Source: Candidatus Kapaibacterium sp. (GTDB lineage: Bacteria > Bacteroidota > Ignavibacteria > Kapaibacteriales > Kapaibacteriaceae). From it: a DNA stretch of 64,000 nucleotides. Positions 7,687 through 40,290 of the stretch are shown here, piece after piece. Numbering within the stretch: position 1 is the first letter of the stretch; each line of letters begins with the position of its first letter. Position numbers and translations under genes: made by a program. The notes under the pieces are model-generated. The model ran no database searches, had not been told where the DNA came from, and saw nothing but the letters and a program-made list of their open reading frames with translations. The DNA is taken from positions 5,963 to 69,962 of the forward strand of contig VEQR01000004.1 in assembly GCA_018883125.1 (NCBI GenBank). Direction: 5' to 3'.

Positions 7687-7896
7687 GAAGACTGAAGACT
7701 GAAGACTGATGACTGATGACTGATGACTGATGACTGATGACTGAAGACTGAAGACTGATGACTGAAGACTGATGACTGATGACTGATGACTGATGACTGA
7801 TGACTGAAGACTGATGACTGAAGACTGATGACTGAAGACTGATGACTGAAGACTGAAGACTGATGACTGATGACTGATGACTGATGACTGATGACT
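7687..7896 (+). repeat. 30-unit perfect heptamer tandem array with two unit types, GAAGACT (11) and GATGACT (19)
   Basis: Read unit by unit. There are no indels and no substitution other than A/T at unit position 3. It starts 2 nt after the gltA stop codon. Confidence 0.97.
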
Positions 7897-7910
7897 GTCG
7901 TTGTGAATCG

Positions 7911-7980
7911 TAATCAGTAATTAGTCATCAGTAATCAGTCATCAGTCATCAGTAATCAGTAATCAGTAATCCGTAATCGT
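7911..7980 (-). repeat. About 10-unit heptamer array in inverted orientation (TCATCAG / TAATCAG)
   Basis: TCATCAG is the reverse complement phase of GATGACT. A 14-nt spacer separates it from the forward array. Confidence 0.9.
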
Positions 7981-8006
7981 CCGCCGGTTCCTGTGAAAAT
8001 GTAAAA

Positions 8007-8035
8007 AGCCCGTCACATTGACGGGCTTTCTATCT
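8007..8035 (+). terminator. Rho-independent terminator after gltA and its repeat arrays
   Basis: Stem AGCCCGTCA (8007-8015) / TGACGGGCT (8019-8027), followed by TTCTATCTTTG. Confidence 0.7.
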
Positions 8036-8060
8036 TTGTGCCCTACGGGGGCAAATGTCG

Positions 8061-8137
8061 TGGTGGACGCTACTAGATTCGAACTAGTGACCTTTACGAT
8101 GTCAACGTAACGCTCTAACCAACTGAGCTAAGCGTCC
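8061..8137 (-). tRNA. tRNA-Val(GAC): tRNA-Val (anticodon GAC), CCA encoded
   Basis: Manual cloverleaf: acceptor GGACGCT/AGCGTCC, D arm GCTC..GAGC, anticodon stem TTACG/CGTAA with loop TTGACAT, T arm ACTAG-TTCGAAT-CTAGT, then ACCA. Confidence 0.9.
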
Positions 8138-8202
8138 CAAAGGGGATGCGAAGTTAAAAAAATCTTCGAACATTCACTGGTCTCACACGAGAAAGGATTT
8201 GC

Positions 8203-10308
8203 ATGTCGATCATTTCCATCATTCTAGGTCTAGGCGTCCTGGCCTTGATCGTCGCCGTCATCTTCCGTCAGCGGGTGCTGTCGGTGAAGGTTGAGGATGG
8301 GGCTTCTTCGCCGGAAGAACTCTCACGACTGACCGAGATCTCTACGGCAATTGCCGAGGGAGCAATGGCGTTTCTGAGCCGTGAGTACCGCGTGCTCGGA
8401 CTGTTTATGGCCCTGTTTGCCGTGCTGATCTTTTTCACTGTGGACCACGGAGCCCACACAGCACTTGCCTTTGTATGCGGTGCAGCAACATCGGTTGCCG
8501 CTGGCTACATCGGCATGAAGATCGCCACCGTGGGCAACGTTCGCACAGCGTCGGCTGCACGCGTTTCGCTACAGAAGTCGTTCTCGGTTGCCTTTGAATC
8601 GGGTGCCGTGATGGGATTTGGCCTTACGGGTCTTGCCGTTGTCGGCCTTATCCTCGTGTGGCTTGGTATCGATGCGATGCTCCCTGGTGTAAGCCGCGAA
8701 GTGCAGATGGAAATTCTCTCCGGTTTTGGTCTCGGAGGTTCGGCTGTGGCTCTGTTCGGTCGTGTAGGTGGTGGTATCTATACAAAGGCTGCCGACGTTG
8801 GGGCCGACCTTGTGGGTAAGGTCGAAGCAGGAATCCCGGAAGACGATCCACGCAACCCAGCAGTTATCGCCGACAATGTTGGCGATAACGTTGGCGATAT
8901 CGCCGGCATGGGCGCAGACCTCTTCGGCTCGGTGGCAGAATCGACCTGTGCCGCTTTGGTCATTGGTGCTGCCAGCTACGCTGCCATGCCCGCCGGTGCT
9001 GCCAATATGAACATCGTCCTCTTCCCGATGCTTGTTAACGGCGTTGGGATTGTTGCGTCAATCCTTGCTCTTCCGTTTGTGCGTGCCTCAAGCGAAGAGA
9101 AAGTAGAAGGGGCTCTGAAGAACGCCCTCATCATCTCAACGGTCATCATGCTAGCTGCTCTGTATCCGATTACGAACTGGGCCTTTGGAACCACATCCTT
9201 CATGGTCGGCACTGTGTTGGTGAACGGCATGGGTGTGTTCACGGCGCTGGCTGTTGGTCTTGTTGCCGGACTTCTCATTGGTCTTGTGACAGAGTTCTAC
9301 ACGTCGCACCGCTACAAGCCCGTGCGCGAAGTTGCCGATGCTTCCAAGACCGGTTCGGCAACGAACATCATCTATGGTCTTGCACTCGGCTACAACTCTG
9401 CTGTTATCCCAATGCTCCTCATTGCTATCAGCGTTGTGGTGGGGTACTCGTTTGCCGGCATGTATGGTATCGCACTCACAGCCATCGGTATGCTGGGCAC
9501 GATTGCGGTTGGTCTTACGATCGATGCCTATGGCCCAACGTCGGATAACGCCGGTGGTATCGCCGAAATGGCCGAGATGGGCAAGGATATCCGCAAGCGC
9601 ACAGACGCTCTCGACGCAGCCGGCAATACAACGGCCGCAATCGGTAAGGGCTTCGCCATCGGCTCGGCTGCGCTGACATCTCTTGCGCTCACCAGCGCAT
9701 TCCTCACGCGTGCGAAGGTTCAGGGCACTGCCCTTGCTATCACCGATCCGCACGTTCTTGCCGGACTTCTGGTAGGGGGCGCACTGCCGTTTGCCTTTAG
9801 CGCCATGACGATGAAAAGCGTCGGCAAGGCCGCCTTCGCCATGATCGAAGAAGTCCGCCGTCAGTTCCGAACCATTCCTGGTCTGATGGAAGGCAAGGCC
9901 AAGGCCGACTATGCCAAGTGCGTTGACATCTCGACGGCTGCATCGATCAAGGAGATGATCGCTCCTGGTCTGCTCGTGATCCTCTCGCCCCTTGTCGTCG
10001 GCTTCCTCTTTGGTGTGCAAATGCTTGCCGGACTCCTCATTGGCTCTCTGGTTGTGGGCGTGATGCTGGCCATCAGCATGGCTAACTCCGGTGGTGCATG
10101 GGACAATGCCAAGAAGTACATCGAGACAGGCGTTCACGGTGGTAAGGGCTCGGATACGCACAAGGCCGCCGTCGTAGGCGACACTGTGGGTGATCCGTTC
10201 AAGGACACGTCGGGACCGGCTCTCAACATCCTTATCAAGCTGATGGCCATCATTTCGCTGGTGTTTGCCGGCGCGTTCGCCTCAAGCGGCGGAATCTTGT
10301 TGAAGTAA
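8203..10308 (+). CDS. hppA: Membrane-bound ion-translocating pyrophosphatase, K+-dependent subtype
   Basis: About 16 TM helices; motifs [38 protein letters not shown] and [14 protein letters not shown] (Ala rather than Lys in the GNTT[A/K]A determinant). Confidence 0.93.
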
Positions 10309-10372
10309 TTACGGAATTACTGAAGTACTGAGTTACTGAAGTACGGAATTACTGAATTACCGAATTACAGAA
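10309..10372 (+). repeat. 8-unit octamer array, [G/T]TACNGA[A/G]
   Basis: TTACGGAA TTACTGAA GTACTGAG TTACTGAA GTACGGAA TTACTGAA TTACCGAA TTACAGAA, starting at the base after the hppA stop codon. Confidence 0.9.
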
Positions 10373-10374
10373 GG

Positions 10375-10414
10375 ACGGGAGTTGCGAGGTGTTCGCGGCT
10401 CCCGTTTCTTTTTT
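10375..10414 (+). terminator. Rho-independent terminator of hppA
   Basis: Stem ACGGGAGTTGCGA / TCGCGGCTCCCGT (with G-U pairs), followed by TTCTTTTTT. Confidence 0.75.
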
Positions 10415-10503
10415 AGAGCTGAGAAATACGCGTCACACATGGGAACCTGTCAACCCTGTTTATTCGTTATGTCGGCTCTGCACAACAACATCTGCACAGG
10501 AAT

Positions 10504-12915: not shown

Positions 12916-12982
12916 CGACTGTTGACACAGGCCGTATCTTCAACGGTCATTTGATTTCGGCGTCACCATCCCGTTTGCTCGG

Positions 12983-15037: not shown

Positions 15038-15053
15038 TCAGCTGTAAAGCCCC

Positions 15054-15083
15054 TTGCAGATTTCTTCGATGCCCGTATCTTTG
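15054..15083 (+). promoter_or_regulatory. Bacteroidota-type promoter (TTG-N19-TATCTTTG) for tRNA-Lys
   Basis: TTG at 15054-15056, a 19-nt spacer, then TATCTTTG at 15076-15083, ending 4 nt before the tRNA 5' end. Confidence 0.45.
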
Positions 15084-15086
15084 CGG

Positions 15087-15160
15087 GCTTCCTTAGCTCA
15101 GCTGGTTAGAGCAACTGACTCTTAATCAGTGGGTCCGGGGTTCGAGTCCCCGAGGGAGCA
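15087..15160 (+). tRNA. tRNA-Lys(CTT): tRNA-Lys (anticodon CTT), CCA not encoded
   Basis: Manual cloverleaf: acceptor GCTTCCT/AGGGAGC (one G-U pair), anticodon stem ACTGA/TCAGT with loop CTCTTAA, T arm CGGGG-TTCGAGT-CCCCG. Confidence 0.9.
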
Positions 15161-15170
15161 CACAAAACTC

Positions 15171-15207
15171 AAAAGCCTTCGCTTTGAAAGAAGCGAAGGC
15201 TTTTTTT
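15171..15207 (+). terminator. Rho-independent terminator after tRNA-Lys
   Basis: Stem GCCTTCGCTT (15175-15184) / AAGCGAAGGC (15191-15200), followed by TTTTTTT. Confidence 0.85.
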
Positions 15208-15579: not shown

Positions 15580-16668
15580 TCAGTTTCCTTCGCTGCCAAG
15601 AAATGGGTAATCGATGTACCCACTGTCGTTTCCACCATACATCGTTGCGCGATCGGGTGCGTTCAACTGGGAATTGAGTTCGAAGCGCCGAGGGAGATCA
15701 GGATTTGCTAGGAATAGAGAACCATAGGAGATCATTGATGCAAGCCCCCTGTTAATTTCCGCTTCGCCGGAATCGCGCGTGTAGCCGCAATTGGCAATGA
15801 TCGGATGTCGGCTGATACTGCCAAAGGTCTCGATTGCGTCGGCAGGGTATTGCGGAAAGGCGTCGGTTGAGAAGGGGACCTTCATGATGTGCACTTAGGA
15901 CAGTGGCATCTCATTCATTTGATGCAGAAGCATAGTGAACTGTTCAGTAGGATCGAGGTGCGCAATGCCGTTGTATGTGCTGGTTGGGGAAATACGAATA
16001 GCTGCTTTGTCAGGCCCAACTGCTGCGACAAGTGCTTGCATCACCTCGATCACAAAGCGGTTGCGGTTTTCGTGACTTCCGCCATAGCCATCAGTGCGTT
16101 GGTTTGAGCTTTCGGCGAGGAACTGGTTTGGAAGGTAACCGAAGGCTGCATGGAGTTCAACGCCGTCAAAACCGGCCTCGATAGCATTCTTTGCTGCTTG
16201 CTGATAGTCCCCCACGATGCTCGCGATTTCATGAACGTCCAACGCGCGCGGCGTTTCATAGTCCTTCAACCCTTGCATGGTAAAATGCTGTTGGCCAGTG
16301 ATGCCAACGGCAGACGGAGCAACCGGTAGTTCGCCATTTTTCACGAGTGAGTGCCCAACACGGCCAGTATGCCACAGCTGGGCATAAATGACGCCTCCCT
16401 GTTCATGCACAGCCTTGGTGACATGTTGCCAGGCCTCGATCTGGTCCTGTGTATAGAGTCCTGGCGTTAAGGGGCTCCCTGTTGCCTGCTTGCTGATATT
16501 GATCGCCTCGCTGATGATCAGACCAGCGCTTGATCGCTGCGTGTAGTAGGTCACTACTGATGACCCTACAACGCCGTCGCTGCTTGCCCGGCTGCGAGTC
16601 ATCGGCGCCATCGCTAGGCGATTCTTGAGCACGTGTGTGCCGATGCGGGCTTGTTCGAGAAGCTTCAT
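15580..16668 (-). pseudogene. NADH:flavin oxidoreductase (Old Yellow Enzyme / NemA-like) interrupted by an in-frame TAA
   Basis: Track ORFs 15895..16710 and 15580..15894 are contiguous in one frame, separated only by TAA (15895-15897). Together they give a full-length OYE (..LAMAPMTRSRA.., ..FGSLFLANPDLPRRF..). The likely start is MKLLEQ (ATG at 16668). Confidence 0.65.
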
Positions 16669-16747
16669 GGTTTGTTCCTTTTTGCAGTGGTGATAATTTT
16701 CGAGGGCCAAACTAGGATCCTAGTTGCAAATACAGCTGTAGTTTCGA

Positions 16748-19540: not shown

Positions 19541-20014
19541 ATGAACATCATTGATCGGCTTAACCTTCTCGAGCACCCTGAAGGGGGCTATTACCGCGAA
19601 TACTATCGATCGTCGATCACCGTGCCTACAGAGAGGGGGCCGCGCTGCGCAGCCACGTCAATCTGGTTTTGTTTGCCGGTAGGTGTTGTGTCGAACTTTC
19701 ATCGGCTATCGAACGATGAGATCTGGTATTGGCACGAGGGCGGACCCGTGGTGGTTCACATCATTCATCCGGATGGACGGTACGAGCATGTTGAGCTTGG
19801 CTCGCCCCCTTTCATGCATGCCGCTGTATTGCCGGCAGGAACATGGTTCGGTGCGGAGTCACTCGAACAAGATGTGCTTGTATCAGCAATGGTAGCACCT
19901 GGCTTTGAGTTTGAAGACTTCGAATTGGCCACGCGAGCTGGGCTTCTGGCTATGTATCCGCAGCATGGAGAGATTATACAGCGATTGACTCGAGAAGAGG
20001 GACAGAGGTACTGA
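19541..20014 (+). CDS. Cupin-fold protein (DUF985-like)
   Basis: LEHPEGGYYREYYRS N-terminal motif and cupin-like core. The last five codons and the stop codon lie in a 16-bp tandem repeat. Confidence 0.65.
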   Translation: MNIIDRLNLLEHPEGGYYREYYRSSITVPTERGPRCAATSIWFCLPVGVVSNFHRLSNDEIWYWHEGGPVVVHIIHPDGRYEHVELGSPPFMHAAVLPAGTWFGAESLEQDVLVSAMVAPGFEFEDFELATRAGLLAMYPQHGEIIQRLTREEGQRY

Positions 20015-20037
20015 GGGACAGAGGTACTGAGGGACGA
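19999..20037 (+). repeat. GGGACAGAGGTACTGA x2 plus a partial copy (octamer pair GGACAGAG / GTACTGAG)
   Basis: Exact 16-mer at 19999-20014 and 20015-20030, partial copy to 20037. The first copy contains the cupin stop codon (20012-20014). Confidence 0.9.
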
Positions 20038-20175: not shown

Positions 20176-21420
20176 TTAGCGAATGCTGGTGACTGTCCGC
20201 ACGCATGTTCCCTTTCGTTCTACGCGTAGCGTTAGTCCCGTTGTTGACGAATCAACAGATCTCCCGAGCACATCATAGGTGGCTTCGAGTATCCATTCGC
20301 CATCGCCGGAATCGCCTTCTACGGAGGTGACGGAGTCGAGTGCAGCGCGGATCTGCTGCTTAAGCTTCATGTAGGTGGGGTAGATATCGACAACGCTGCT
20401 GGACTTCACGGCCAGCACGCCACAGTAGCGACGTTCGAAGTCGATCCACGGACTGAAGCCGAACCGGCCCTGGGAAGCCCCCTCAATGAGTGTGTCATTT
20501 GATGAGTCAATACGCTCGCGCCATACGCCGATGCCGTACCGAGTGTTACGATCACTCAATGCGATGCCCATGTATGGAGAGTATCCGATCTTGGCGCCAC
20601 GAGTTTGATCGGTGAGCATCGAGTCGATCCACGCCGAGCCAAGCACACGCCTGCCTTCGTAGACGCCATCGTTGAGGATCATCACAAGCAGGCGCATGTA
20701 CTCTTCGGCTGTGCTCCAGACGCCACCGTCGATGCGTGGATTGTCCGTGTCGTAGATGCCTCGGATATCCCAAGAAGTGCGCGTCCATCCGAGTGGACGT
20801 GCGATGGTGGTGGTAAACAGCGAATCCCAGCATGAGCCTGACCCTATGGGCAGCTGCGAAGCCACCTCGGCCATTCGTCCGGCTACCTGCATGCCCTCAC
20901 TGCCATAATTCAGAAAGCTACCCGGTGGCGTGGCCAACGTGCCGGCCAGGATGTTATCGACGCATTCGGCAAGCGTGAGTTTACAGTTCACATCCTCCAC
21001 ACAGGGTGTTATGGGGCCTGCATTGCCGCGAAGTCCAGAGGTGAACGAAAACAGCTGGCGAATGGTCATGCGCCGCATGTCGCCCTTGGCCGTCGGAATA
21101 TACTGTGCTACGGAATCGTCAAGATTCAACGTCCCATTCTCAAGCAGTGCCGTCATCACGGAACCCGAGACCCACTTCGATGCCGAAGCAATGGGGATGA
21201 GACGCGACTTCGACATCGTCTTGCCAGCAAGGGCTACTGACCGCTCATAGATGAGCCGGCCATCCTTCCAGAGCAGCAGGCACGCTCCGCCAAAGTCCGT
21301 TTCGCGGGTTCCTCCAAGCACGGACAGCGAATCCTGAAGTGTCTGGTCCACAGCCGAGAAATTGTAGTTCTGCGCGCTTAGCGGCGCAGCAAGAGCGAGA
21401 AGAAGAAGGATGAGGTGCAT
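20176..21420 (-). CDS. Beta-lactamase-related serine hydrolase (class C / PBP4*-like)
   Basis: SxxK motif in IASASKWVSG. Signal peptide MHLILLLLALAAPLSAQ from ATG at 21420. The track ORF extends to 21657 only by reading through non-coding repeats. Confidence 0.75.
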   Translation of the reverse strand: MHLILLLLALAAPLSAQNYNFSAVDQTLQDSLSVLGGTRETDFGGACLLLWKDGRLIYERSVALAGKTMSKSRLIPIASASKWVSGSVMTALLENGTLNLDDSVAQYIPTAKGDMRRMTIRQLFSFTSGLRGNAGPITPCVEDVNCKLTLAECVDNILAGTLATPPGSFLNYGSEGMQVAGRMAEVASQLPIGSGSCWDSLFTTTIARPLGWTRTSWDIRGIYDTDNPRIDGGVWSTAEEYMRLLVMILNDGVYEGRRVLGSAWIDSMLTDQTRGAKIGYSPYMGIALSDRNTRYGIGVWRERIDSSNDTLIEGASQGRFGFSPWIDFERRYCGVLAVKSSSVVDIYPTYMKLKQQIRAALDSVTSVEGDSGDGEWILEATYDVLGRSVDSSTTGLTLRVERKGTCVRTVTSIR

Positions 21421-21421
21421 A

Positions 21422-21516
21422 GTGACTAGTGACGAGAGATGAGTGACGAGTGACGAGAGACGAGAGACGAGTGACGAGTGACGGAGGTACGGAATGACGG
21501 AATGACGGAATGATGT
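21422..21516. repeat. 9 heptamers (GTGACGA / GAGACGA) followed by 4 octamers (AATGACGG type)
   Basis: Read unit by unit: heptamers 21422-21484, octamers 21485-21516. Confidence 0.85.
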
Positions 21517-21645
21517 TCTCCCGCATAATAGCCCATGGCCTTGGCCATGGGAACGCGATGTTGACGGAATGACGTTCTCCCGCATAATAGCCCATGGCCT
21601 TGGCCATGGGAACGCTGGCCATGGGAACGCTGGCCATGGGAACGT
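21504..21645. repeat. Composite repeat: a 53-bp unit x2 (1 mismatch) plus TGGCCATGGGAACGC x3, each 53-bp unit carrying the palindrome CCCATGGCC-TT-GGCCATGGG
   Basis: 53-bp copies at 21504-21556 and 21563-21615. 15-mers at 21601-21615, 21616-21630 and 21631-21645. Palindromes at 21532-21551 and 21591-21610. Confidence 0.9.
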
Positions 21646-21715
21646 GGAAGACCACACATCGATGACACAGGTTTAACATGTGTGACCGTCCGACCGTTTT
21701 AGTCGTGGAAGGCCG

Positions 21716-22798
21716 TTAATGCCCAAGTCGACGCAGCAGGGTCGATGGATTGAACTTCTTCCACGCATGCCACGCGTCGGCATGCACCTGCACGGGGCGT
21801 CCATCGATGCTGATACGGTAGCCGTTGCCGCGACAGGAGTTTCCAACGATGGTTACGATGTGTCCTTGTACGGTATCGGTCAGTATGGAGTCCGAATGCT
21901 GACGTTGGCACAGATCTCGTACGGGGTAGGCGAGAGTTAGCCCCGGCACTACCGCTCCAAGAACCAATGTTCGACGGGTCACGGAATCACCTTCGTCGCC
22001 TGTCCACTTCGAAAACCCTTTCGACCAGTCTCCGCGATCGCCCGTCGAAGGGTCGGACCTCATGATTGATACGAGTCCGCGCCGATACGCCTCTTCGTAT
22101 CTCTGCGGTACATCATGCAGATCGATCTGCTCGTAGGGGAGATCCTTGAGCGCCATGCCTCGGCGAGGTCCGGCAACGCACTCTCCTGTGGCCTGATACC
22201 ACCAGGATCCCGAAGTGGCATCCTCGAACATGGCGTTATAGTAGTTTGCTCCAACAAGGCGGAATCGCTCGAGCTTCCCATCCACAATTGGTGAGAAGAC
22301 GCGCCCTGTGTGACACATGGTGCAGTAGGTGATGAGTACCTGCTCGCCCCCTACCGTATCAATGACCTTGTGATGATGCGCAACCAGGTCAATGGGGTAG
22401 GCCGCAACAACACCATTGCGCTCAACGACCATCACGCCTTCATCATTCAAACGTCCAGCGATTAAGCGCTCGCGGACAACCGTTTCGGGTTCGTTGAACA
22501 TGGCCTCGGCCGACATCTTTGTCGCAACGAGAACGTGAATGGCCGTGGCAATGAGCATTGCCAGGATCAGAACTGCCCGACCATACCAACGCCCCTGCTG
22601 CCAGCATTCGTAGGCACCATAGGCAGCGCTAACGGTTCCGACGAGATAGAATGCCCACCTCCAGGCGTGGAAGAAAAATGCCCACGGAACGGCATCGAGT
22701 TCCTGAGCACCCGGCACGATGGGCATCATGAGGATGACGGAGGAAAGGGGCGGAGCGGTTGCCAAGAGCAGTCCGCAGATCAGCAGTATCCAGCGCAT
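21716..22798 (-). CDS. DUF3179-domain membrane-anchored protein
   Basis: N-terminal TM helices followed by ..ITYCTMCHTGRVFSP..GANYYNAMFEDATSGSWWYQATGE.., typical of DUF3179. Confidence 0.6.
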   Translation of the reverse strand: MRWILLICGLLLATAPPLSSVILMMPIVPGAQELDAVPWAFFFHAWRWAFYLVGTVSAAYGAYECWQQGRWYGRAVLILAMLIATAIHVLVATKMSAEAMFNEPETVVRERLIAGRLNDEGVMVVERNGVVAAYPIDLVAHHHKVIDTVGGEQVLITYCTMCHTGRVFSPIVDGKLERFRLVGANYYNAMFEDATSGSWWYQATGECVAGPRRGMALKDLPYEQIDLHDVPQRYEEAYRRGLVSIMRSDPSTGDRGDWSKGFSKWTGDEGDSVTRRTLVLGAVVPGLTLAYPVRDLCQRQHSDSILTDTVQGHIVTIVGNSCRGNGYRISIDGRPVQVHADAWHAWKKFNPSTLLRRLGH

Positions 22799-30937: not shown

Positions 30938-31537
30938 ATGAATCAGTCCCGTTCGGATGCCATTGAAGGCATTATTCGCGATTCGATCGCCGTCAAAGAG
31001 AGGCTGCTGCACGAACAGACGGAAGCAATTCGGTCAGCCGGAGCAGTTCTTGCCCAATGCGCCAATCTTAATCGGTTGATCATGCTCTGCGGCAACGGTG
31101 GAAGCGCTGCCGATAGTCAGCACATCGCCGCAGAACTGGTCGTGCGCCTTCGCAGCGACGTGAACCGTCGGGCGATCAAAGCCCTAGCTCTAACGACCGA
31201 CAGCAGCGTTCTGACGGCAGGCGGCAATGACTACGGCTTTGACCGTGTCTTCAGCCGTCAGATCGAGGCATTTGGAGACTCGGGTGACGTACTTATCGCC
31301 ATCTCCACAAGCGGCACATCGAAGAACGTTGTCCTCGCCGTGGAGGAAGCTCGTAATCGCGGTGTGCGCACAATCGGTCTCCTCGGTGGAACCGGCGGCG
31401 TCCTGAAAGAGTTATGTGATCATGCGGTTGTGGTCCCATCTTTGGTTACCGCCCGCATTCAGGAGTGCCACATCATGATTGGGCATATCTGGTGCGAGAT
31501 GATTGAGGAAGGAATTACGGAGTTACGGAATTACTGA
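30938..31537 (+). CDS. gmhA: Phosphoheptose isomerase (SIS domain)
   Basis: GNGGSAADSQHIAAEL and AISTSGTSKNV motifs. The last 7-8 codons and the stop codon are encoded by octamer repeats. Confidence 0.8.
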   Translation: MNQSRSDAIEGIIRDSIAVKERLLHEQTEAIRSAGAVLAQCANLNRLIMLCGNGGSAADSQHIAAELVVRLRSDVNRRAIKALALTTDSSVLTAGGNDYGFDRVFSRQIEAFGDSGDVLIAISTSGTSKNVVLAVEEARNRGVRTIGLLGGTGGVLKELCDHAVVVPSLVTARIQECHIMIGHIWCEMIEEGITELRNY

Positions 31538-31616
31538 AGTACGGAATGACGACCATCGTCATTCACGCGAAAGCGGGAATCCATCCTTGATGACTGATGA
31601 CTGATGACAATGACGA
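31515..31616 (+). repeat. Five octamers (TTACGGAG TTACGGAA TTACTGAA GTACGGAA TGACGACC, 31515-31554) and four heptamers (GATGACT type, 31589-31616)
   Basis: Read unit by unit. The gmhA stop TGA (31535-31537) lies inside unit 3. Confidence 0.85.
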
Positions 31617-31643: not shown

Positions 31644-32483
31644 ATGCGATCTATGATGCAAATCCTCTGCCTTCTTTTCATCACCTCAATGGTCAGTGCT
31701 CAGGAGCTGAAGCTGCCGGCGCTGAGCCCAACAGCAACGATCTCGCAGGATTTTTCGACATCGAAGATCGAGATCACCTACAGCCGTCCGTCGATGCGTG
31801 GACGCAAGGTCTTTGGTGACCTTGTTGCATACGGGAAGGTATGGCGCACGGGTGCGAATGCCGCAACCAAGATCACGATCAGTGAAGAGATGGTTATCGG
31901 CGGCTCAACGATTAAGCCGGGTTCGTACTCGCTGTACTCCATCCCCGGACAATCCGAATTCACCGTCATCATCAACAAGAATACGGGTGGCTGGCCTGGT
32001 GGCGATGGCTGGTCGAAGGACGACGACGTAGCCCGATTTACGGTTCCGGCATCGCGCACGCCACAGACCATAGAAACATTCTCGGTCGGCATTTCGAACG
32101 TCACGTTCTCCAGTTGCTCTGTCGATATCATGTGGGAGAACACCATGATTTCTATTCCTGTGAAGGCCGAAAATCAGCAGCGTCTGCTCACGGCCATTGA
32201 CAAAGCGATCACTGCACCCAACATCCCGTATCAGCAGGCGGCAACGTATCTCTATGAGACCGGACAGAATCTCGGCAAGGCTCTAGAATATGCGAGTGCA
32301 GCATTGGATCGCAACCCGAAGGCGTACTGGATTGCCTTGACGAAGGCAAAGATCGCCGCCAAGCTGGGTCGCAAGGATGTGGCACGCGAGGCTGCGCAGA
32401 AGACGATTGAGATCACAAAGGCCGCTGGTGGCGATGCTGACTACGAGAAGGCAGCACAGGACATCATCAACTCTTCGAAGTAA
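31644..32483 (+). CDS. DUF2911-domain periplasmic protein with C-terminal TPR-like helices
   Basis: ..ITYSRPSMRGRKVFGDLVAYGKVWRTGANAATKIT.. is typical of DUF2911. Signal peptide present. Confidence 0.6.
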   Translation: MRSMMQILCLLFITSMVSAQELKLPALSPTATISQDFSTSKIEITYSRPSMRGRKVFGDLVAYGKVWRTGANAATKITISEEMVIGGSTIKPGSYSLYSIPGQSEFTVIINKNTGGWPGGDGWSKDDDVARFTVPASRTPQTIETFSVGISNVTFSSCSVDIMWENTMISIPVKAENQQRLLTAIDKAITAPNIPYQQAATYLYETGQNLGKALEYASAALDRNPKAYWIALTKAKIAAKLGRKDVAREAAQKTIEITKAAGGDADYEKAAQDIINSSK

Positions 32484-34899: not shown

Positions 34900-36542
34900 G
34901 CACCCTTGATTGGGGTGTGTTTCTCGCTACGCTGCTTGGCGTAGTTCTCTACGGACTCTGGCGTGGGCGGGGTAACACCTCGGCAGACGATTATCTGCGT
35001 GCAGGACGGTCTCTCCCGTGGTATTCGGTGCTTCTCGGCGTGATGGCAACGCAGGCAAGTGCCATCACCTTTCTCTCGGCTCCGGGTCAGGCATTTACCG
35101 ATGGCATGCGCTTCGTGCAATACTACTTCGGATTGCCGCTGGCGATGATCGTCATTAGTGTCGTGTTCATTCCGATGTTTCGGACGGTGAATGCCTACAC
35201 CGCCTATGAGTTTCTCGAACAGCGGTTTGATCGTCGAACGCGGATGACAACGAGCATTTTATTTCTGCTGTCGCGAGGGCTAAGCACTGGCATCAGCATC
35301 TATGCACCGAGCATCATTGTCGCAACACTGCTCGATTGGAATATCTATGCTACAAACATCGTCGTGGGCGGTCTCTTGCTACTCTATACGCTCTCCGGTG
35401 GGGCCCGCTCGGTAGCGCACACGCAGACGCTGATGTTCGGGATCATTCTCACATCGATGGCTGTGGCAGGGGTCTTTCTCGTCCAGGGTTTCCCGAATTC
35501 AATGACGTTGGCGGATGCACTTCGGCTTTCAGATGCCGCCGGTAAACTGAACATCATCACTACAAGATTCGATCTTCATGACAAATACAACATCTGGAGC
35601 GGCCTGATAGGGGGCTTCTTTCTTGCCCTGTCATACTTCGGAACTGATCAAAGTCAGGTCGGACGATTCATCACGGGAAAGAACATCCGTGAAAGTCGCA
35701 TAGGCCTACTCGTCAATGGCATCGTTAAGATTCCGATGCAGCTTGGTATACTGCTGATCGGTGCGTTGCTTGTGGCGCTCTACAGCGTTATGCCCAGCCC
35801 CATATTCTTCAATGAAGCTGTTGCGCAACGCGTCGATCGTATCGATTCATCACAAGCATCCCTGCTGCATCAGAAGTGGGATGCGGTCAATGCTGAGTTA
35901 CGGCGCACAGCAGCGAATGTACTCGATGGAAAACCTGGTGCTAAAATCGCCTATCGTCAGACATTCGACAGCACAACGCGGCTACGCTCCGAGTACCGAA
36001 CGTTTGTTCGCTCCACGGGGGTTCTCGAGTCGAACGATACCAACTACATCTTTTTGCACTTCGTGCGAACCATGCTTCCGGCCGGTCTTGTCGGTCTGAT
36101 CTTTGCCGTCGTTATCATGGCATCGTGGGGAAGTATCTCCGCCGGATTTCATTCCCTAGCAACGGCAAGCGTGGTTGATCTGCGAGGTATCACGAACACA
36201 GCCGCCGATGTTACAGCCGCGCGCTGGCACACATTCTTATGGGCAGTGTTCGGCGTAGCGATGAGCATGCTCGCAACGCAGATGGGGTCACTCATTGAGG
36301 CCGTCAACATTCTCGGGAGCCTCTTCTATGGCCCCATTCTCGGGATCTTTCTCGTTGCATTCCTGGTCAAAAAAGCAAATGGCACCGACGTTTTCCGCGG
36401 TGCCATTGCTGCCGAATTGATTGTTGTTGCCTGCTGGGCTTTGAACGTTGTTAGCTTCCTATGGCTGAACGTTGTTGGCGCTGTTGCCGTGGTGCTGTAC
36501 GCTTTAATGAGCTCAACGTACCACCGAGAACCGGCGCGTTAA
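34896..36542 (+). CDS. Sodium:solute symporter family transporter
   Basis: About 13-14 TM helices with an SSF-like N-terminus (DYLRAGRSLPWY, FLSAPGQAF). ATGA overlap with the deacetylase gene. Confidence 0.7.
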   Translation: MSTLDWGVFLATLLGVVLYGLWRGRGNTSADDYLRAGRSLPWYSVLLGVMATQASAITFLSAPGQAFTDGMRFVQYYFGLPLAMIVISVVFIPMFRTVNAYTAYEFLEQRFDRRTRMTTSILFLLSRGLSTGISIYAPSIIVATLLDWNIYATNIVVGGLLLLYTLSGGARSVAHTQTLMFGIILTSMAVAGVFLVQGFPNSMTLADALRLSDAAGKLNIITTRFDLHDKYNIWSGLIGGFFLALSYFGTDQSQVGRFITGKNIRESRIGLLVNGIVKIPMQLGILLIGALLVALYSVMPSPIFFNEAVAQRVDRIDSSQASLLHQKWDAVNAELRRTAANVLDGKPGAKIAYRQTFDSTTRLRSEYRTFVRSTGVLESNDTNYIFLHFVRTMLPAGLVGLIFAVVIMASWGSISAGFHSLATASVVDLRGITNTAADVTAARWHTFLWAVFGVAMSMLATQMGSLIEAVNILGSLFYGPILGIFLVAFLVKKANGTDVFRGAIAAELIVVACWALNVVSFLWLNVVGAVAVVLYALMSSTYHREPAR

Positions 36543-38948
36543 ACGTCCGACTGAGGATTCAAGCACAACGGTGTACGAACCCGATGCAAGGTCGCTTACG
36601 ATGAGCTTCATATCTGTTGCACCAGCGGCTGCGGCCGTACGACGAATCTCACTGCCGGTGTTGTCGATGATCACAACCGAGTGCACATTCTGACCGTTCC
36701 AGTGCAGCTGGACAACGTCGGTTGCCGGAACCGGCCATACAGCAACGTCAACAAGAACTTCCTCATCGACGCCGGTGACCATAACACTGACCTCGTCACT
36801 CTTCGTCGAGCGACCACACTCTGATGTCACGGTGCACTGATACATACCCTGACCTTCGGCAGTAACTGATGCAATCTTGAGCGTTGAGGACGTTCCATCA
36901 GGAGCGGGGATCGCTGTGCCATTGTGCGTCCACTGGTACGTCAGGCCCGGACCTTCGGCAGCAACCGACAACTCAAGGGCAGAGCCCGCGCTGACAGATT
37001 TGGCAATTGGTTGTTTGGTGATGACGGGGCTGTCCGCGATCTGCACCTTCGCCGCATCGCTGGTCTTCGATCCACACGTGGTGGTAAGGACAACGTCATA
37101 CGAGCCGGATGAGTTTGCGGTCGGTGACGCAATGCTGTAGGTGGCGTTTGTTGCACCGTCAATGTTCGCTCCGTCTTTCCGCCACTGATAGGTAGTGCCC
37201 GGCGTTGTTGTTGCAACCGATAGCGTGAGCTGGCGTCCGGAACAAGCTGTGACGCCCAGTGGCTGTGTTGTGATGGCCGGAACAACCCCCGTTGTAAAGG
37301 TCAGGGGGCTTACTGCGACATTGCCGCGACTTGACCGAACGCGCAACTGGATCGAACCGACCATGTCTTCGGCCTTTGGCGTCCAGCTATATGAGCGCGT
37401 CTTCAGACCGGAGACAACGGATGTCCACGCCTTCCCGTCGGTAGAACGCTGCACAGAATATGTGTCTGATGCCTGCATCCCATCGGCACCCCATGTGATC
37501 GACACTTCTGATCCTTCGCAGAGCGATGGATTCTCGGTTGGTGTGCGCCACGTCATTACGCCGAAAGGATACTTTTCAACGAATGCCGTGAAGGCAGATG
37601 CTCCAACCGCTTTCCGGGAACCAACGCGATAGACGTCATCGTACGAATCAACGGCGAGTGCCAAAGGCTGATCTGCACCTGGTGTTCCCGTGATCGTGCA
37701 ATATGTCTGCTCCAATGTGGTGAAACGAACGAGGAAGCCATCCTGCTCGCCCCGTGCCTGTGAGGATGCCCCGAGTCCAACCTCGGGGATGGATGCCGTT
37801 GTGGTGCCGACAGCGGTAACGATCGAGCCAACCGAGCGAGCTCCGGTGATCCGATCGTCTCCCGCACCACCGACATACTGCGCCGAAACAAGCTTGAGAC
37901 CATTCGATGATACTGCGGCATAGAAGCCGTCATTCTTGCCACCGAACGTTGAATTCACTTCGGCAGGTATAGGCAGATCTGCTGAGCTGGTATATCCAAG
38001 CAGGTAGGCTACGTCTTCCGCGCCAACGGCAACGCTGGTTCCGATATCCACGCCTGCACCTCCGAAAAAGGCGGAGTAGACCATTGTGCCGCCAAGTTGA
38101 ATCTTGATTACTACGGCATCCTGACCGCCACCAAAGGAGTTGTCAAAACACACATTCCCCGTTTCCTCCCAGTGGCCGGTCGCACAGCCATAGTACGGAC
38201 ATCCTCCGTCATCAACCCAGACGCGATTCTTCACGGGAAAGGTTGGGAAGTCAAGGGAGGCAGTGTATCCACCAATCACGGCGTTATTCTTGGAGTCAAC
38301 AACGACAGATGTCATTTCATCATTCTCCACTCCGCCGAGGTAGCTCGCGGAGTTCACGAACTTCCCGAAAGCATCTAAGGAGATGTAGAAGCCGTCGTTC
38401 TTACCATTCTGTGTTTCGTCAAAGCTGTTGACCGTTGGCAGCGACTTTGCTGATGCGATGCCACCAACCACCACCACATCGCCCAAAGGTCCGATCGCGA
38501 TTGCATTGGCACGGTCTGCTCCGGTTCCTCCGATATACATCCCAACTAGGACCGTCTTTAGATCTGCCGATAACTTCGCAACGAAACCATCGGTCGCCCC
38601 CTTGAACGCTCCCTTAAGGGGCGAAGCAGGGAATGGCAGGTCGTTTGACGTTGTCTCGCCGCAGATCCATACCGACCCATCGGCTGCCACGGCCATCCCC
38701 GTAATAATGTCTTTGCCAGAACCACCGAAGGTGGCCGATGCCACGACAGATTCGAGATCAGAGGCGTGGACGACGATGGCCCCGTCGGTGTTGTCGGCTT
38801 GTGTCACGTTGCCGACGGAAATGATGTAGCCGTTCTTCAAGATCATCGTCGCCGTAGCTTCGGTCATCTTCTCGAAGGTGTTTTGCGAGAAAACATTGGT
38901 CAATGAAACGACGGTTAACGCGCAACAGATGAGAAGAGGTTTGATCAT
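36513..38948 (-). CDS. Secreted SBBP beta-propeller-repeat / Ig-like-domain protein with T9SS CTD
   Basis: Repeats of the type Y.GG.G.D.A.AIA....G.VVV.G.T.S.D.P. Three Ig-like modules (..YQWRKDGANIDGATNATYSI..SGSYDVVLTT.CG..). C-terminus VAVWPVPATDVVQLHW..SYTVVLES... Confidence 0.75.
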   Translation of the reverse strand: MIKPLLICCALTVVSLTNVFSQNTFEKMTEATATMILKNGYIISVGNVTQADNTDGAIVVHASDLESVVASATFGGSGKDIITGMAVAADGSVWICGETTSNDLPFPASPLKGAFKGATDGFVAKLSADLKTVLVGMYIGGTGADRANAIAIGPLGDVVVVGGIASAKSLPTVNSFDETQNGKNDGFYISLDAFGKFVNSASYLGGVENDEMTSVVVDSKNNAVIGGYTASLDFPTFPVKNRVWVDDGGCPYYGCATGHWEETGNVCFDNSFGGGQDAVVIKIQLGGTMVYSAFFGGAGVDIGTSVAVGAEDVAYLLGYTSSADLPIPAEVNSTFGGKNDGFYAAVSSNGLKLVSAQYVGGAGDDRITGARSVGSIVTAVGTTTASIPEVGLGASSQARGEQDGFLVRFTTLEQTYCTITGTPGADQPLALAVDSYDDVYRVGSRKAVGASAFTAFVEKYPFGVMTWRTPTENPSLCEGSEVSITWGADGMQASDTYSVQRSTDGKAWTSVVSGLKTRSYSWTPKAEDMVGSIQLRVRSSRGNVAVSPLTFTTGVVPAITTQPLGVTACSGRQLTLSVATTTPGTTYQWRKDGANIDGATNATYSIASPTANSSGSYDVVLTTTCGSKTSDAAKVQIADSPVITKQPIAKSVSAGSALELSVAAEGPGLTYQWTHNGTAIPAPDGTSSTLKIASVTAEGQGMYQCTVTSECGRSTKSDEVSVMVTGVDEEVLVDVAVWPVPATDVVQLHWNGQNVHSVVIIDNTGSEIRRTAAAAGATDMKLIVSDLASGSYTVVLESSVGRLTRRFSVVR

Positions 38949-39055
38949 AGGGGAACCCGCACAGAAGATGATAGAGATTTCATACCGTATAGTCTGAATT
39001 CGGACGTTTTAGTTACATGAAATCCGAAAAATATCCCCCCCCAGCTACGGATCGG

Positions 39056-39796
39056 CTATTGTGCGAGATAACCGCCATCGACAGGGAAGTACCCTCCTGT
39101 TACGAAGGATGCCTCCTCTGAGCCAAGGAATGCAACAAGTGCCGCTACCTCGTCAGGAGTGCCGACTCGACCGATTGGATGACGCGCGACGACGTCATGG
39201 GCGACCTGTGGATCTTGCATTACGCCGGCAATCATCGGTGTGTCGATGAATCCGGGACCCACGGCATTGATCCGCACACCCTGCGCCGAATGATCGATCG
39301 CCGCCGACCGAACCAGTCCGACAAGTCCGTGTTTGGCAGCCGTGTACGCCGGTGCTCCGGCAAAGCCGACCATGCCGAGAACGGACGAGATCACGATGAT
39401 CGACCCCTTGCCTTGCTTGAGCATTGCGGGTAGCTGTGCCCGTATGCCGTAGAACACCCCGGAGAGGTTCACGTCGATGATGCGGCGCCACTCCTCCACG
39501 GGGTATGTGGCCGTAGGAGCCCCTTGCCCGCCAATGCCGGCATTGTTCACGGCCACATCAAGCCGACCGAATTCACGAAGTGTTGCCTCCATGCACGCCT
39601 CGTGATGCTCAGGAATCGAGACGTCGCAATGAACATACAGAGCATTGGCTCCCTGCTTCTTCAGTTCTGTCTCAAGCTGCACGCCATGCTCATCGTTGAC
39701 GTCCGCAAGGACCACATTGGCGCCTTGCATTGCATATCGACGAGCAATCGCCGAGCCGATGCCAGAGGAGGCGCCGGTGATTAGAACAACGGACAT
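39056..39796 (-). CDS. Short-chain dehydrogenase/reductase (FabG-like)
   Basis: TGASSGIGSAIA cofactor motif, catalytic YTAAKHG, NNAG. Confidence 0.85.
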   Translation of the reverse strand: MSVVLITGASSGIGSAIARRYAMQGANVVLADVNDEHGVQLETELKKQGANALYVHCDVSIPEHHEACMEATLREFGRLDVAVNNAGIGGQGAPTATYPVEEWRRIIDVNLSGVFYGIRAQLPAMLKQGKGSIIVISSVLGMVGFAGAPAYTAAKHGLVGLVRSAAIDHSAQGVRINAVGPGFIDTPMIAGVMQDPQVAHDVVARHPIGRVGTPDEVAALVAFLGSEEASFVTGGYFPVDGGYLAQ

Positions 39797-39802
39797 AATG
39801 AG

Positions 39803-40290
39803 TTACTGAGTTACTGAATTACAGAGGTACAGAAGTACAGAAGTACTGAGGTACAGAAGTACAGAAGTACAGAAGTACCTAAGTACAGAAGTACTGAGGT
39901 ACAGAAGTACAGAAGTACCTAAGTACAGAAGTACTGAGGTACAGAAGTACCGAAGTACCGAAGTACGGAAGTACTGAGGTACAGAAGTACAGAAGTACAG
40001 AAGTACAGAAGTACAGAAGTACAGAAGTACAGAAGTACAGAAGTACAGAAGTACAGAAGTACTGAAGTACAGAAGTACTGAGGTACAGAAGTACAGAAGT
40101 ACCGAAGTACCGAAGTACAGAAGTACCGAAGTACCGAAGTACCGAGGTACAGAAGTACAGAAGTACAGAAGTACAGAAGTACAGAAGTACAGAAGTACAG
40201 AAGTACAGAAGTACAGAAGTACAGAAGTACAGAAGTACAGAAGTACAGAAGTACTGAGGCACAGAATTACGGAAGTACAGAGACACAGGA
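39803..40290. repeat. 61-unit octamer tandem array, consensus GTACAGAA (37 exact units)
   Basis: Read unit by unit with no indel over 488 bp. Variants: GTACTGAG, GTACCGAA, GTACCTAA, GTACGGAA. Pure GTACAGAA runs of 10 units (39979-40058) and 13 units (40147-40250). A 40-bp higher-order unit is repeated at 39859-39898 and 39899-39938. Confidence 0.97.

Follow-up and report, generated by a model that had tools for sequence, protein, structure and literature searches.

What kind of repeat are the tandem arrays of very short units that lie between genes at six loci of the 64-kb window (the whole stretch of DNA analysed here), and which process could have placed them there? They belong to a type of bacterial repeat already described elsewhere, met here in a new lineage, Candidatus Kapabacteria, and with some details that are new.

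Six arrays at gene boundaries

All six loci proposed by a sequence-only reading were recovered where it had placed them by Tandem Repeats Finder and direct reading, with units of 7 or 8 nt only. A lag-match scan of the window gave seven runs at period 7, six at period 8 and zero at periods 4–6 and 9–12, while 50 shuffled sequences yielded no runs at all. Each locus is situated inside a non-coding gap; by a crude ORF call, such sequence makes up ~7% of the window and coding sequence ~93%. The proposal that the arrays are non-coding, not CRISPR and STRR-like in kind is supported. The relatedness of the unit types as one family is likewise supported; GACTGAT (7690–7897) and TGATGAC (31588–31608) are one unit in two rotations. 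In the octamer KTACNGAR, AC is invariant and variation is focused on position 5, with an entropy of 1.36–1.75 bits that includes duplicated, and hence non-independent, unit variants. The adjacent genes, identified by Pfam searches covering 20 of the window's proteins, are unrelated and have housekeeping or enzyme functions. The window stems from a metagenome-assembled genome (MAG) of Candidatus Kapabacteria, and copy numbers of long arrays are given as assembled.

At loci 1, 2, 3 and 5 the array starts at or includes a stop codon (TAA 7682–7684, TAA 10306–10308, TGA 20012–20014 and TGA 31535–31537; the closeness to a stop codon at four loci had been noted in the earlier reading) and is purine-rich on the mRNA, whereas the arrays at loci 4 and 6 are antisense to their genes and end 0–6 nt from the next start codon. 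The general placement between stop codons and terminators that had been suggested therefore describes the former loci as regards the stop codon, but not the latter two, which are leader or intercistronic sequences. Read in the purine-rich orientation, sense arrays have their 5' end anchored at a stop codon and antisense arrays at a start codon, and inverted units or a GC-rich hairpin are found 3' of several arrays.

All features are given on the plus strand. Locus 1 comprises 30 units of the heptamer GA[A/T]GACT (7687–7897; 29.7 copies at 7690–7897 in Tandem Repeats Finder), 19 of them GATGACT and 11 GAAGACT, which begin 2 nt past the citrate synthase stop codon in sense orientation. This array is followed by ten units of GT[A/C]ATCA (7906–7979), the reverse complement of the preceding units. 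By computation the heptamer array RNA is unstructured by itself, but together both arrays can pair as an imperfect stem of ~70 nt (z = -7.9). The intrinsic terminator of citrate synthase (8005–8029) is kept in relatives lacking arrays and is ancestral. At locus 2, eight octamers [G/T]TACNGA[A/G] (10307–10372) occupy the entire gap between the H+-PPase stop codon and the stem of a terminator hairpin (10373–10414, also delimited as 10373–10407), which is common to the window and its relative L114 only. Downstream of this hairpin there is a decayed remnant of another terminator, the one that serves L002, L003 and L115. Terminators had been predicted at both loci, and they are present there and conserved in relatives.

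Locus 3 consists of alternating octamers GGACAGAG and GTACTGAG (2.4 copies, 19996–20037; 19996–20035 in Tandem Repeats Finder) between convergent genes, and includes the stop codon of a Cupin_5 gene. At locus 5, five octamers of the GGAATTAC type (31511–31551) start directly after the conserved ..CEMIE of a SIS-domain protein and encode its final residues and stop codon. A small hairpin GAATGACGA/TCGTCATTC (31544–31584), overlapping the NTS-like hairpin CGTCATTCACGCGAAAGCGGGAATCCAT at 31557–31584, leads over to three TGATGAC heptamers with degenerate units (31583–31616; Tandem Repeats Finder core 31588–31608), ~30 nt upstream of the ATG (31644) of a DUF2911 gene.

The genes flanking loci 4 and 6 are encoded on the minus strand. 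At locus 4, nine heptamers AG[T/A]GACG (21421–21483; CGTCACT on the minus strand) abut the ATG (21418–21420) of a beta-lactamase-family gene with 0 nt spacing, a signal peptide following, and adjoin four octamers GAGGTACG/GAATGACG (21484–21516; three copies at 21489–21513 in Tandem Repeats Finder). Only this part (21421–21516) of the 7/8-mer array once delimited as 21422–21645 is composed of such units; positions 21503–21644 hold a 59-nt element in 1.9 copies and then a 15-mer in 2.9 copies. Each copy of the 59-nt element contains the palindrome CCCATGGCCTTGGCCATGGG (21532–21551 and 21591–21610) which, like the inverted array of locus 1, contradicts the earlier statement that inverted repeats are missing. 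Locus 6 is an array of 61 octamers (about 59–61 units; 39799–40290, or 39799–40281 in Tandem Repeats Finder), antisense to both flanking genes, with 14 unit types and GTACAGAA accounting for 37/61. It lies 70 nt past the fatty-acid hydroxylase stop codon (40361–40363) and 3–6 nt before the ATG (39794–39796) of an SDR gene. The ~70 nt to the preceding stop codon, noted before for loci 4 and 6, thus holds at the far end of both arrays, but at their near end they run up to the ATG of the following gene, in antisense.

The same boundaries in related genomes

Related species share arrays at the 3' end of the PPase gene, the 3' end of the SIS gene and the 5' end of the beta-lactamase-family gene, while unit sequence, unit length (7 versus 8) and copy number all differ across species. 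After the SIS gene the window carries five 8-mers, L280 carries GTACTGG in 9.6 copies, L286 AGTGACG in 14.6 and L291 AGTGACG in 3.1; in all four species the array follows the conserved ..CEMIE and brings its own stop codon. The eight units behind the PPase gene are matched in L114 by ~15 of different variants, and the beta-lactamase-family gene shows the same architecture in the window and L294, with the array ending in GTCACT-ATG. Boundary arrays are kept in up to four species, at just ~72–83% nucleotide identity to the window. In L002, L003 and L115, arrays are absent after citrate synthase and PPase, where single unit-like motifs are found; at the site of locus 6, L291 has single antisense units versus 61 in the window, and this spacer measures only 45–48 nt in two sister species.

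Polymorphism in unit number is present even within species. GTTTCAG occurs in 7.7 copies in L280, L282 and L283 versus 5.7 in L281 and L284 (assemblies 99.7–99.98% identical), and AGTGAC[G/A] in 14.6 copies in L286 and L287 versus 3.4 in L290 (98.3% identity). Six assemblies of a single species give an identical 9.6-unit array.

A total of 113 arrays from other genomes were placed by our own ORF-based calls, and the upstream gene is co-oriented in 58 cases versus 29. In 26 of the 58 the upstream stop codon lies between -21 and +12 nt relative to the point where the array begins, with 36 nt as the next value, and sense arrays outnumber the others at stop codons by 26 to 10. Similar arrays are present in many phyla, including the closed isolate genomes of Flavobacterium anhuiense FLA4, Psychrobacter sp. 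ER1 and Vibrio. Permuted control motifs matched the octamer motif in frequency in a collection of viral contigs, the only one tested.

Origin of the arrays

On balance, the arrays are probably slippage-driven minisatellites, a lineage-specific hypervariable family of the LSSR/STRR kind that fills untranslated gaps at gene boundaries. Single or double proto-units pre-existing in a spacer would have been the origin, and slipped-strand mispairing in replication or repair would lengthen and shorten the arrays. Slippage together with microhomology deletion could wear away neutral flanks until a constrained stop codon, start codon or terminator stem is reached; arrays would fill their gaps exactly because erosion halts at such sequences. 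Since neither 7 nor 8 is divisible by 3, units with TGA, TAG or TAA end translation in any frame, so that an array could harmlessly take over a gene's last codons and stop. In long-read lake metagenomes, non-coding deletions are tied to intergenic tandem repeats (PMC9426551). The arrays would be transcribed as 3' UTR at loci 1, 2, 3 and 5 and as leader or intercistronic RNA at loci 4 and 6, mostly as near-neutral filler, with a long 3' stem (locus 1) or altered leader length (loci 4 and 6) as possible side effects. Three observations speak against this explanation. Persistence at boundaries in up to four species exceeds what is expected for a purely neutral, readily lost repeat and would suit either selection or a process that generates arrays at specific sites, the concentration of variation on position 5 of KTACNGAR hints at a motif constraint, although duplicated variants are not independent, and the purine-rich sense bias is not predicted by plain slippage.

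A role as cis-regulatory elements, i.e. multivalent mRNA (or DNA) sites for a lineage-specific protein that tune stability, termination or translation initiation, appears unlikely. In its favour, array position is held at three gene boundaries across species, the purine-rich strand tends to be the sense strand, and the AC..GA core is conserved around a free middle position. Two arrays lie 0–6 nt from start codons, necessarily in the ribosome landing region, and the locus 1 arrays fold beside the terminator as a long stem, which on this account would act as an adjustable, REP-like 3' stabilizer. A regulatory role has moreover been put forward for the TAACTGA repeats that precede start codons in Beggiatoaceae, one mismatch away from the heptamer described here (MacGregor 2015, PMC4679880). 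However, units of this one family have sense orientation at loci 1, 2, 3 and 5 but antisense orientation at loci 4 and 6, so that a single RNA-binding specificity cannot serve all. Units at orthologous sites are wholly different between species (GGAATTAC, GTACTGG, AGTGACG), one site holds 3 to 15 copies within a species, several close relatives lack arrays at the same genes, the genes concerned are functionally unrelated, and a candidate binding protein was not found.

Somewhat more doubtful still is an origin of the arrays as by-products or parts of a REP/BIME- or NTS/Ssn-type hairpin system. In that case tandem amplification of GTCA-type flanks beside small palindromes would have produced the units, with a hairpin-specific single-strand nuclease or transposase nicking by the hairpin and repair synthesis slipping. 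By their sequence, the units resemble what amplification of the flanks of REP-like and NTS-like hairpins would give, and small palindromes in 3' spacers are shared with REP/BIME and Neisseria NTS/dRS3 elements, where SsnA cuts single-stranded DNA 3 nt 5' of the NTS flank (PMC11893778). The REP-like hairpin module of locus 4 is found again, together with GTCACTY heptamers, in related MAGs: these heptamers border the palindrome CCCCGGGCCAAGGCCCGGGG in L071, L075, L079, L291 and L294 as well as the window variant at 21532–21610, heptamer and palindrome lying within a 48–59-nt tandem module. Reverse-complemented, the octamer GGAATGAC(G) reads CGTCATTCC, which equals the 5' flank and arm start of the NTS-like hairpin CGTCATTCCYGCGAAAGCRGGAATCCA. 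This hairpin is situated 4–60 nt 3' of arrays in the window (31557–31584), L036, L066, L075 and L113, and a reversed copy is located, in L114 and L003, in the citrate synthase 3' UTR that carries arrays in the window; by our own count, 26 of 28 positions of the window copy match the Neisseria NTS consensus. Nevertheless, the arrays are not palindromes, and hairpins occur at two of the six loci (4 and 5), with loci 2, 3 and 6 devoid of them. The published SRM search pattern matches the window at chance level only, and crude motif scans of the window and fetched loci, with Pfam searches of 20 window proteins, revealed no cognate GIY-YIG or Y1-transposase gene. Shared residence in short 3' spacers would alone put arrays near hairpins, and arrays of unrelated units (GTACTGG, GTTTCAG) occur without them.

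In Haemophilus, 7-nt repeats in the hmw promoters mediate phase variation. That the present arrays are such contingency loci, whose unit number switches or grades expression of the neighbouring gene, is very unlikely. Strains do differ in copy number and two arrays immediately precede start codons, as short units between promoter and start codon do in phase-variable loci; precedents include leader and promoter repeats such as the AGAT repeats grading expression in the Moraxella uspA2 leader (PMC4679880) and published work on simple-sequence-repeat phase variation in Haemophilus. Most arrays, however, follow stop codons, a place in which a change of length is not expected to turn expression on or off, and their genes serve metabolism (citrate synthase, PPase, SIS, SDR) in a free-living environmental bacterium, as opposed to surface or host-interaction genes of host-adapted pathogens. 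In addition, LSSRs of 5–11 nt are typical of non-pathogens according to Mrazek 2007 as summarized in PMC4679880.

Assembly artefacts are hardly credible: although the window is drawn from a MAG, short reads can hardly resolve the length of up to 14 identical octamers in a row (112 nt), and the contig of L114 begins exactly at the expected array position, so that arrays do break assemblies, independently assembled related species have arrays at the same boundaries, the six assemblies of one species agree, closed isolate genomes carry similar arrays, and assemblers do not invent repeats with unique flanks, which limits the doubt to copy number.

Relation to described repeat families

The closest precedents of the minisatellite family are the LSSRs (Mrazek 2007), the cyanobacterial STRRs and the TAACTGA repeats (MacGregor 2015). 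According to the summary in PMC4679880, LSSRs are slippage-driven intergenic arrays of 5–11 nt units, most commonly heptamers, from many phyla (Mrazek, Guo & Shah 2007). As far as this summary goes, they resemble the window's arrays in head-to-tail arrangement far beyond chance length, a predominance of 7-nt units, a large number of loci in each genome, occurrence in non-pathogens, sporadic phylogeny and proposed slippage. They differ in that the window has octamers as often as heptamers, that the Kapabacteria/Ignavibacteria group was outside the survey, and that codon anchoring and unit turnover at conserved sites are absent from the summary.

The assumption that nothing equivalent had been described in FCB bacteria fails, because MacGregor 2015 (PMC4679880) reports intergenic TAACTGA arrays in five Bacteroidetes, besides Beggiatoaceae and cyanobacteria, reaching 43 copies in Gramella and Aequorivita, while close relatives have no such array in the same spacer. 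Likenesses include intermixing with other heptamers, many arrays whose end is separated from a start codon by a few nt and others that directly follow stops (PMC4679880), a heptamer RNA predicted to be unstructured, and window heptamers TGACTGA/AGACTGA one base away from TAACTGA. However, the window's units are not TAACTGA, octamers dominate, the start-codon arrays are in reverse orientation, most arrays are 3' of genes, and position is conserved across species despite different units. Presence of the same family in close relatives, which the sequence-only reading had named as refuting its proposal if already catalogued, holds for the sequence data, since related MAGs carry it, but not for the literature, in which no paper on Kapabacteria repeats was found.

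STRR1–3 of heterocystous cyanobacteria are intergenic tandem heptamer families with several unit types per genome. They are intergenic tandem repeat families like those of the window, but belong to another phylum and have other unit sequences; no STRRs with 8-nt units or stop-codon anchoring are known.

Genome-specific tandem 7- and 8-nt families have also been described in Geobacter metallireducens, with 4–5 units at dozens of loci, and were interpreted by the authors as regulatory sites (PMC2700814). Those arrays have a fixed low copy number (4–5), often form paired sites and are sometimes intragenic (PMC2700814), whereas the arrays of the window vary from 3 to 61 units and lie strictly between genes.

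Tandem arrays at six gene boundaries

The tandem arrays that the sequence-only reading had placed at six loci are present at all six, as determined with Tandem Repeats Finder and direct reading. Four loci follow plus-strand genes (gene assignments by Pfam). Downstream of the citrate synthase gene (6335–7684), the array of locus 1 (7690–7897) comprises 29.7 copies of a 7-nt unit and starts 2 nt past the TAA at 7682–7684, while at locus 2 eight 8-nt units (10307–10372) adjoin the TAA (10306–10308) of the H+-pyrophosphatase (PPase) gene (8203–10308). At locus 3, two octamers alternate (19996–20035) and the array encloses the TGA (20012–20014) of the Cupin_5 gene (19541–20014). The TGA (31535–31537) of the SIS gene (30938–31537) likewise lies inside the first array of locus 5, five 8-nt units at 31511–31551, with three 7-nt units (31588–31608) located further towards the DUF2911 gene (31644–32483, plus strand). 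The other two loci are flanked by minus-strand genes. Locus 4, situated between the genes for DUF3179 (21716–22798) and a beta-lactamase-family protein (20176–21420), combines nine 7-nt units (21421–21483) with three 8-nt units (21489–21513). Locus 6, between the genes for a fatty-acid hydroxylase (40361–41221) and an SDR protein (39056–39796), consists of about 59–61 8-nt units (39799–40281).

The proposed position between stop codons and terminators does not describe loci 4 and 6. The other four arrays begin at the stop codon of the gene upstream, with which they share the sense orientation; the terminators predicted behind loci 1 and 2 were found at 8005–8029 and 10373–10407. Loci 4 and 6 are indeed located about 70 nt past the stop codon of one gene, but they run antisense and their far end touches the ATG of the next. 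No nucleotide separates the array from the ATG (21418–21420) at locus 4, where a signal peptide follows, and 3–6 nt do so at locus 6 (ATG 39794–39796). A phase-variation contingency locus would have its repeat where unit number alters the reading frame, or the promoter or leader function, of a gene with variable expression; these two arrays sit in leaders, and no window array is found in a 5' coding region. The Bacteroidetes-type -7 promoter motif (TAnnTTTG) gave very few matches near loci 4 and 6.

In a lag-match scan of the window, periods 7 and 8 are the only ones with runs, and periods 4–6 and 9–12 gave none. The 13 runs observed, versus 0 in 50 shuffles, are beyond chance for the composition. 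All six loci fall into gaps, although about 93% of the window is coding according to a crude ORF call. The octamers match KTACNGAR or GAATGACG and the heptamers AGWGACG or GAWGACT; GACTGAT of locus 1 and TGATGAC of locus 5 are the same unit after rotation. Within the arrays AC is fixed, GA almost fixed and variation mostly limited to a single position, the entropy of position 5 amounting to 1.36 bits for the 61 units of locus 6 and to 1.75 bits for those of locus 2. All six arrays are purine-rich on the plus strand, which has a positive GC skew.

When folded, the long 61-unit array is predicted to self-pair strongly through its GUAC cores (z = -16). The forward array of locus 1 yields no structure alone, and an inverted heptamer array at 7906–7979 is predicted to pair with it (z = -7.9). 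An Rfam scan of the window returned three tRNAs and no other known RNA family. In line with the initial assignment, the arrays are neither CRISPR, which consists of 20–50 nt repeats with unique spacers, since their units are contiguous and lack spacers, nor remnants of MITE or IS elements: no terminal inverted repeats or target site duplications frame them, and the inverted array of locus 1 is itself repetitive.

The same boundaries in related species

Related contigs share about 70–87% nucleotide identity with the window and are therefore assigned to other species; a metagenome scan with the conserved PPase retrieved distant relatives only, at 75% identity or less. Comparison of orthologous spacers revealed differences in unit number both between and within species.

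At the PPase locus, three related contigs (L002, L003 and L115) carry short 3' spacers without arrays; they retain the citrate synthase terminator, and their PPase terminator differs from that of the window. In a fourth contig, L114, about 15 octamers (GTACTGAG, TTACGGAA and TGACGGAA, the last present eight times) directly follow the PPase stop codon and precede the terminator known from the window. Both the window and L114 contain, further downstream, a decayed remnant of the PPase terminator of the other species. Alignment of window positions 10373–10470 with L002 12120–12170 places the new terminator hairpin upstream of this remnant (..CATGGGAACC..) in both. In these two genomes, remodelling seems to have affected the PPase 3' UTR in its entirety.

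At the 3' end of the SIS gene, an array begins directly after a conserved ..CEMIE and provides the stop codon in four species. It is built from five GGAATTAC-type units in the window, from 9.6 GTACTGG/GTACTAG units in the species of contig L280, from 14.6 AGTGACG/AGTGACA units in that of L286, and from 3.1 AGTGACG units together with two hairpin elements in that of L291. The beta-lactamase-family gene of L294 is preceded by three 48-nt hairpin elements and 9.9 copies of GTCACTC, which end in GTCACT-ATG, and the minus strand of the window displays the same arrangement at this gene. The spacer between the hydroxylase and SDR genes measures 45–48 nt in two species and 175 nt in L291, which holds single antisense units there; in the window it is 564 nt long. 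Next to the hydroxylase gene, a RelE-like/MqsA-like toxin-antitoxin pair (41247–41893) is located between it and tRNA-Thr; this segment has no counterpart in sister species L280 (alignment gap at 41230–42030).

The cases of length polymorphism within a species come from sister species and not from the population to which the window belongs. Among six assemblies of one species (99.7–99.98% identical), GTTTCAG is repeated either 7.7 or 5.7 times, and a second species (98.3% identity) has SIS arrays of 14.6 units in L286 and L287 versus 3.4 units in L290. Taken together, the presence of an array at a site is long-lived, and its units and copy number turn over fast.

GTTTCAG is the other strand of a second heptamer family, (C/G)AAACC(T/C), which occurs in related genomes (L001/L002 461–487; downstream of arrays in L063 and L103; L280 326–379), adjoins a tRNA gene twice and is length-polymorphic across L280–L284. 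In addition, arrays built from one and the same octamer run in opposite directions at a distance of a few hundred bases in the related MAG contigs L017 (262–372 and 764–844) and L075 (2710–2817 and 3391–3450), bracketing a short segment or a small gene.

Distribution and relation to known repeats

In a collection of species-representative genomes, four successive copies of TACNGARN were found in at least 109 stretches. The matches listed include Proteobacteria, Actinomycetota, Firmicutes, Acidobacteriota, cyanobacteria, Patescibacteria and others, closed isolate genomes among them, a wide spread that is probably a property of octamer arrays as such. Going by record titles, MAGs of Kapaibacterium, Ignavibacteria and Melioribacter account for 15 of the 109 matches listed, and one Kapaibacterium MAG contributes seven of the 15 as separate contigs. 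That the motif is universally favoured was rejected on viral contigs, the collection used for the control: three permuted patterns, with 11, 27 and 29 stretches, were as common there as the target with 15, and the motif does not stand out from other octamer arrays in this collection. In the fetched loci, period 7 (56 arrays) and period 8 (110, seeds counted) outnumber every other period, and each genome mostly reuses its own units.

Placement was analyzed for 113 arrays from other genomes, using our own ORF-based gene calls. Ninety-nine are intergenic, and the 14 exceptions stem mostly from high-GC genomes, in which the ORF caller probably over-calls. For 58 arrays the upstream gene runs in the same direction, versus 29 for which it does not. 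Among the 58, the distance to the stop codon of that gene is bimodal: 26 lie within -21 to +12 nt, and the next is found at 36 nt. Stop codons are adjoined by 26 arrays in sense and 10 in antisense orientation, start codons by fewer (7 and 5). A general rule based on the replication strand was discarded, since local GC skew is unrelated to orientation across the 113 arrays (55 positive, 56 negative, p = 0.73). In Kapaibacterium samp_4321, six of seven loci start at TAG, TAA or TGA, the seventh being situated at a contig end, and the first unit often carries a stop codon in place of its GAR part.

The cyanobacterial STRRs, heptamers such as CCCCAGT, TTGGTCA and CAACAGT, were the first known intergenic arrays of 7–8 nt units. 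The window does not share these units (GAWGACT, AGWGACG and KTACNGAR being found instead), and its host belongs to Candidatus Kapabacteria and not to the heterocystous cyanobacteria: its PPase and hydroxylase show 100% identity to proteins of a Candidatus Kapabacteria MAG. Long simple sequence repeats (LSSRs) have units of 5–11 nt (Mrazek 2007, as summarised in PMC4679880). The arrays agree with them in their head-to-tail order (six loci, all with a period of 7 or 8), in being longer than chance (13 runs versus 0 in 50 shuffles), in the non-coding position of units that are not multiples of three (six of six window loci; 99 of 113 elsewhere by ORF-based calls) and in slippage-consistent length polymorphism in sister species (5.7 versus 7.7 and 3.4 versus 14.6 units). 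Tandem hepta- and octanucleotide families are described for Geobacter metallireducens (PMC2700814), and TAACTGA and other heptamer arrays for Beggiatoaceae, cyanobacteria and five Bacteroidetes (MacGregor 2015, PMC4679880). TAACTGA itself is absent from the window arrays, the nearest units being TGACTGA and AGACTGA (one mismatch) and TTACTGA+A. Moreover, TAACTGA repeats run forward a few nucleotides upstream of start codons, whereas the two start-abutting arrays of the window are reversed (pyrimidine-rich on the mRNA) and the other four follow stop codons. A literature search for repeats in Kapabacteria found nothing. To the known repeats the arrays add the mixture of 7- and 8-nt units, the anchoring at stop codons, the turnover at conserved sites and, possibly, a link to hairpins.

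Origin of the arrays and neighbouring hairpins

According to the best-supported reading, the arrays are minisatellites of the LSSR/STRR kind that are driven by slippage and make up a family specific to this lineage. They fill the untranslated gaps at gene boundaries, which confine them, and would be transcribed as 3' UTR or leader RNA; slippage, near-neutrality and erosion of the flanks are, like transcription, inferences. The conserved positions, the constraint on the core and the bias towards the sense strand leave room for two other explanations: the arrays may have a regulatory role, or they could originate from the action of hairpin-specific nucleases.

According to the latter explanation, the arrays are not products of generic slippage but tandem copies of a GTCA-type flank on the cleavage side of a hairpin, reiterated by repair synthesis after a nick by a hairpin-specific single-strand nuclease. 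Candidate hairpins are of the NTS/Ssn type and the REP-like CCCCGGGCC..GGCCCGGGG type. In Neisseria, the single-strand nuclease SsnA cleaves 3 nt upstream of the hairpin element NTS (PMC11893778). Window positions 31557–31584 (CGTCATTCACGCGAAAGCGGGAATCCAT) agree with the 28-nt NTS consensus CGTCATTCCCGCGMAVGCGGGAATCYRG at 26 of 28 positions by our own count, one mismatch being allowed in the paper. Nearly identical NTS-like copies are found beside arrays in MAGs of Ignavibacteria, Kapabacteria and Melioribacter (L036, L066, L071, L075, L113 and L114), and the 5' flank of the NTS-like element, when reverse-complemented, gives the octamer GGAATGAC(G). The hairpin CGTCATTCCYGCGAAAGCRGGAATCCA lies shortly past the 3' end of arrays in the window (31557–31584), L036, L066, L075 and L113, and L114 and L003 have a reversed copy of it in the 3' UTR of their citrate synthase gene.

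A REP-like palindrome family (CCCCGGGCCAAGGCCCGGGG) is flanked by GTCACTY heptamers in L071, L075, L079, L291 and L294; with CTAGTAA after the palindrome, these flanks give rise to tandem modules of 48–59 nt (L294: 7136–7275). GTCACTY also flanks the window's variant CCCATGGCC..GGCCATGGG at locus 4 (21532–21551 and 21591–21610), where a 59-nt element carrying the palindrome CCCATGGCCTTGGCCATGGG is repeated 1.9 times. This locus, with two copies, is the only one in the window with a REP/BIME-type palindrome, the arrays themselves being non-palindromic.

Against a nuclease origin, hairpins accompany only two of the six loci, and the looser SRM pattern published for Ssn targets (PMC11893778) matches the window at chance level only. 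A nuclease gene was not found either: ssnA belongs to GIY-YIG_unchar_3 and often has the motif at its flanks, and crude motif scans detected no GIY-YIG gene in the window or the fetched loci, and no RAYT (Y1 transposase) occurs among the 20 window proteins scanned. Amplification of hairpin flanks is regarded as quite unlikely, and the association with hairpins as a lead, not a conclusion. If true, such amplification would offer a mechanistic origin for STRR/LSSR-type arrays and account for their polarity, with the hairpin on the 3' and the gene boundary on the 5' side.

Irrespective of their origin, the arrays are able to provide the stop codon and last residues of a gene or to make up the entire leader before a start codon. 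The lineage represents a natural series, in which several species have arrays at shared gene boundaries but differ in units, unit lengths and copy numbers, and in which unit number also varies among strains of a single species. This renders array neutrality, erosion of flanking DNA and seeding by hairpin-specific nucleases testable.

Arrays of 7- and 8-nt units break short-read assemblies: position 1 of the short-read contig L114 lies exactly where the citrate synthase array is expected, and arrays are therefore probably under-represented in MAGs. On the minus strand, stop-free octamer units give rise to spurious ORFs of 167 and 138 aa (39803–40306 and 39879–40295) and stop-free units add 79 codons in front of the real ATG of the beta-lactamase-family gene (ORF 20176–21657), which is a trap for automatic annotation, including that of MAGs. 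Also on the minus strand, a gene for an Old-Yellow-Enzyme-type flavin oxidoreductase (15580–16710) is broken by an in-frame TAA (15895–15897) and represents either a pseudogene or a sequencing error.
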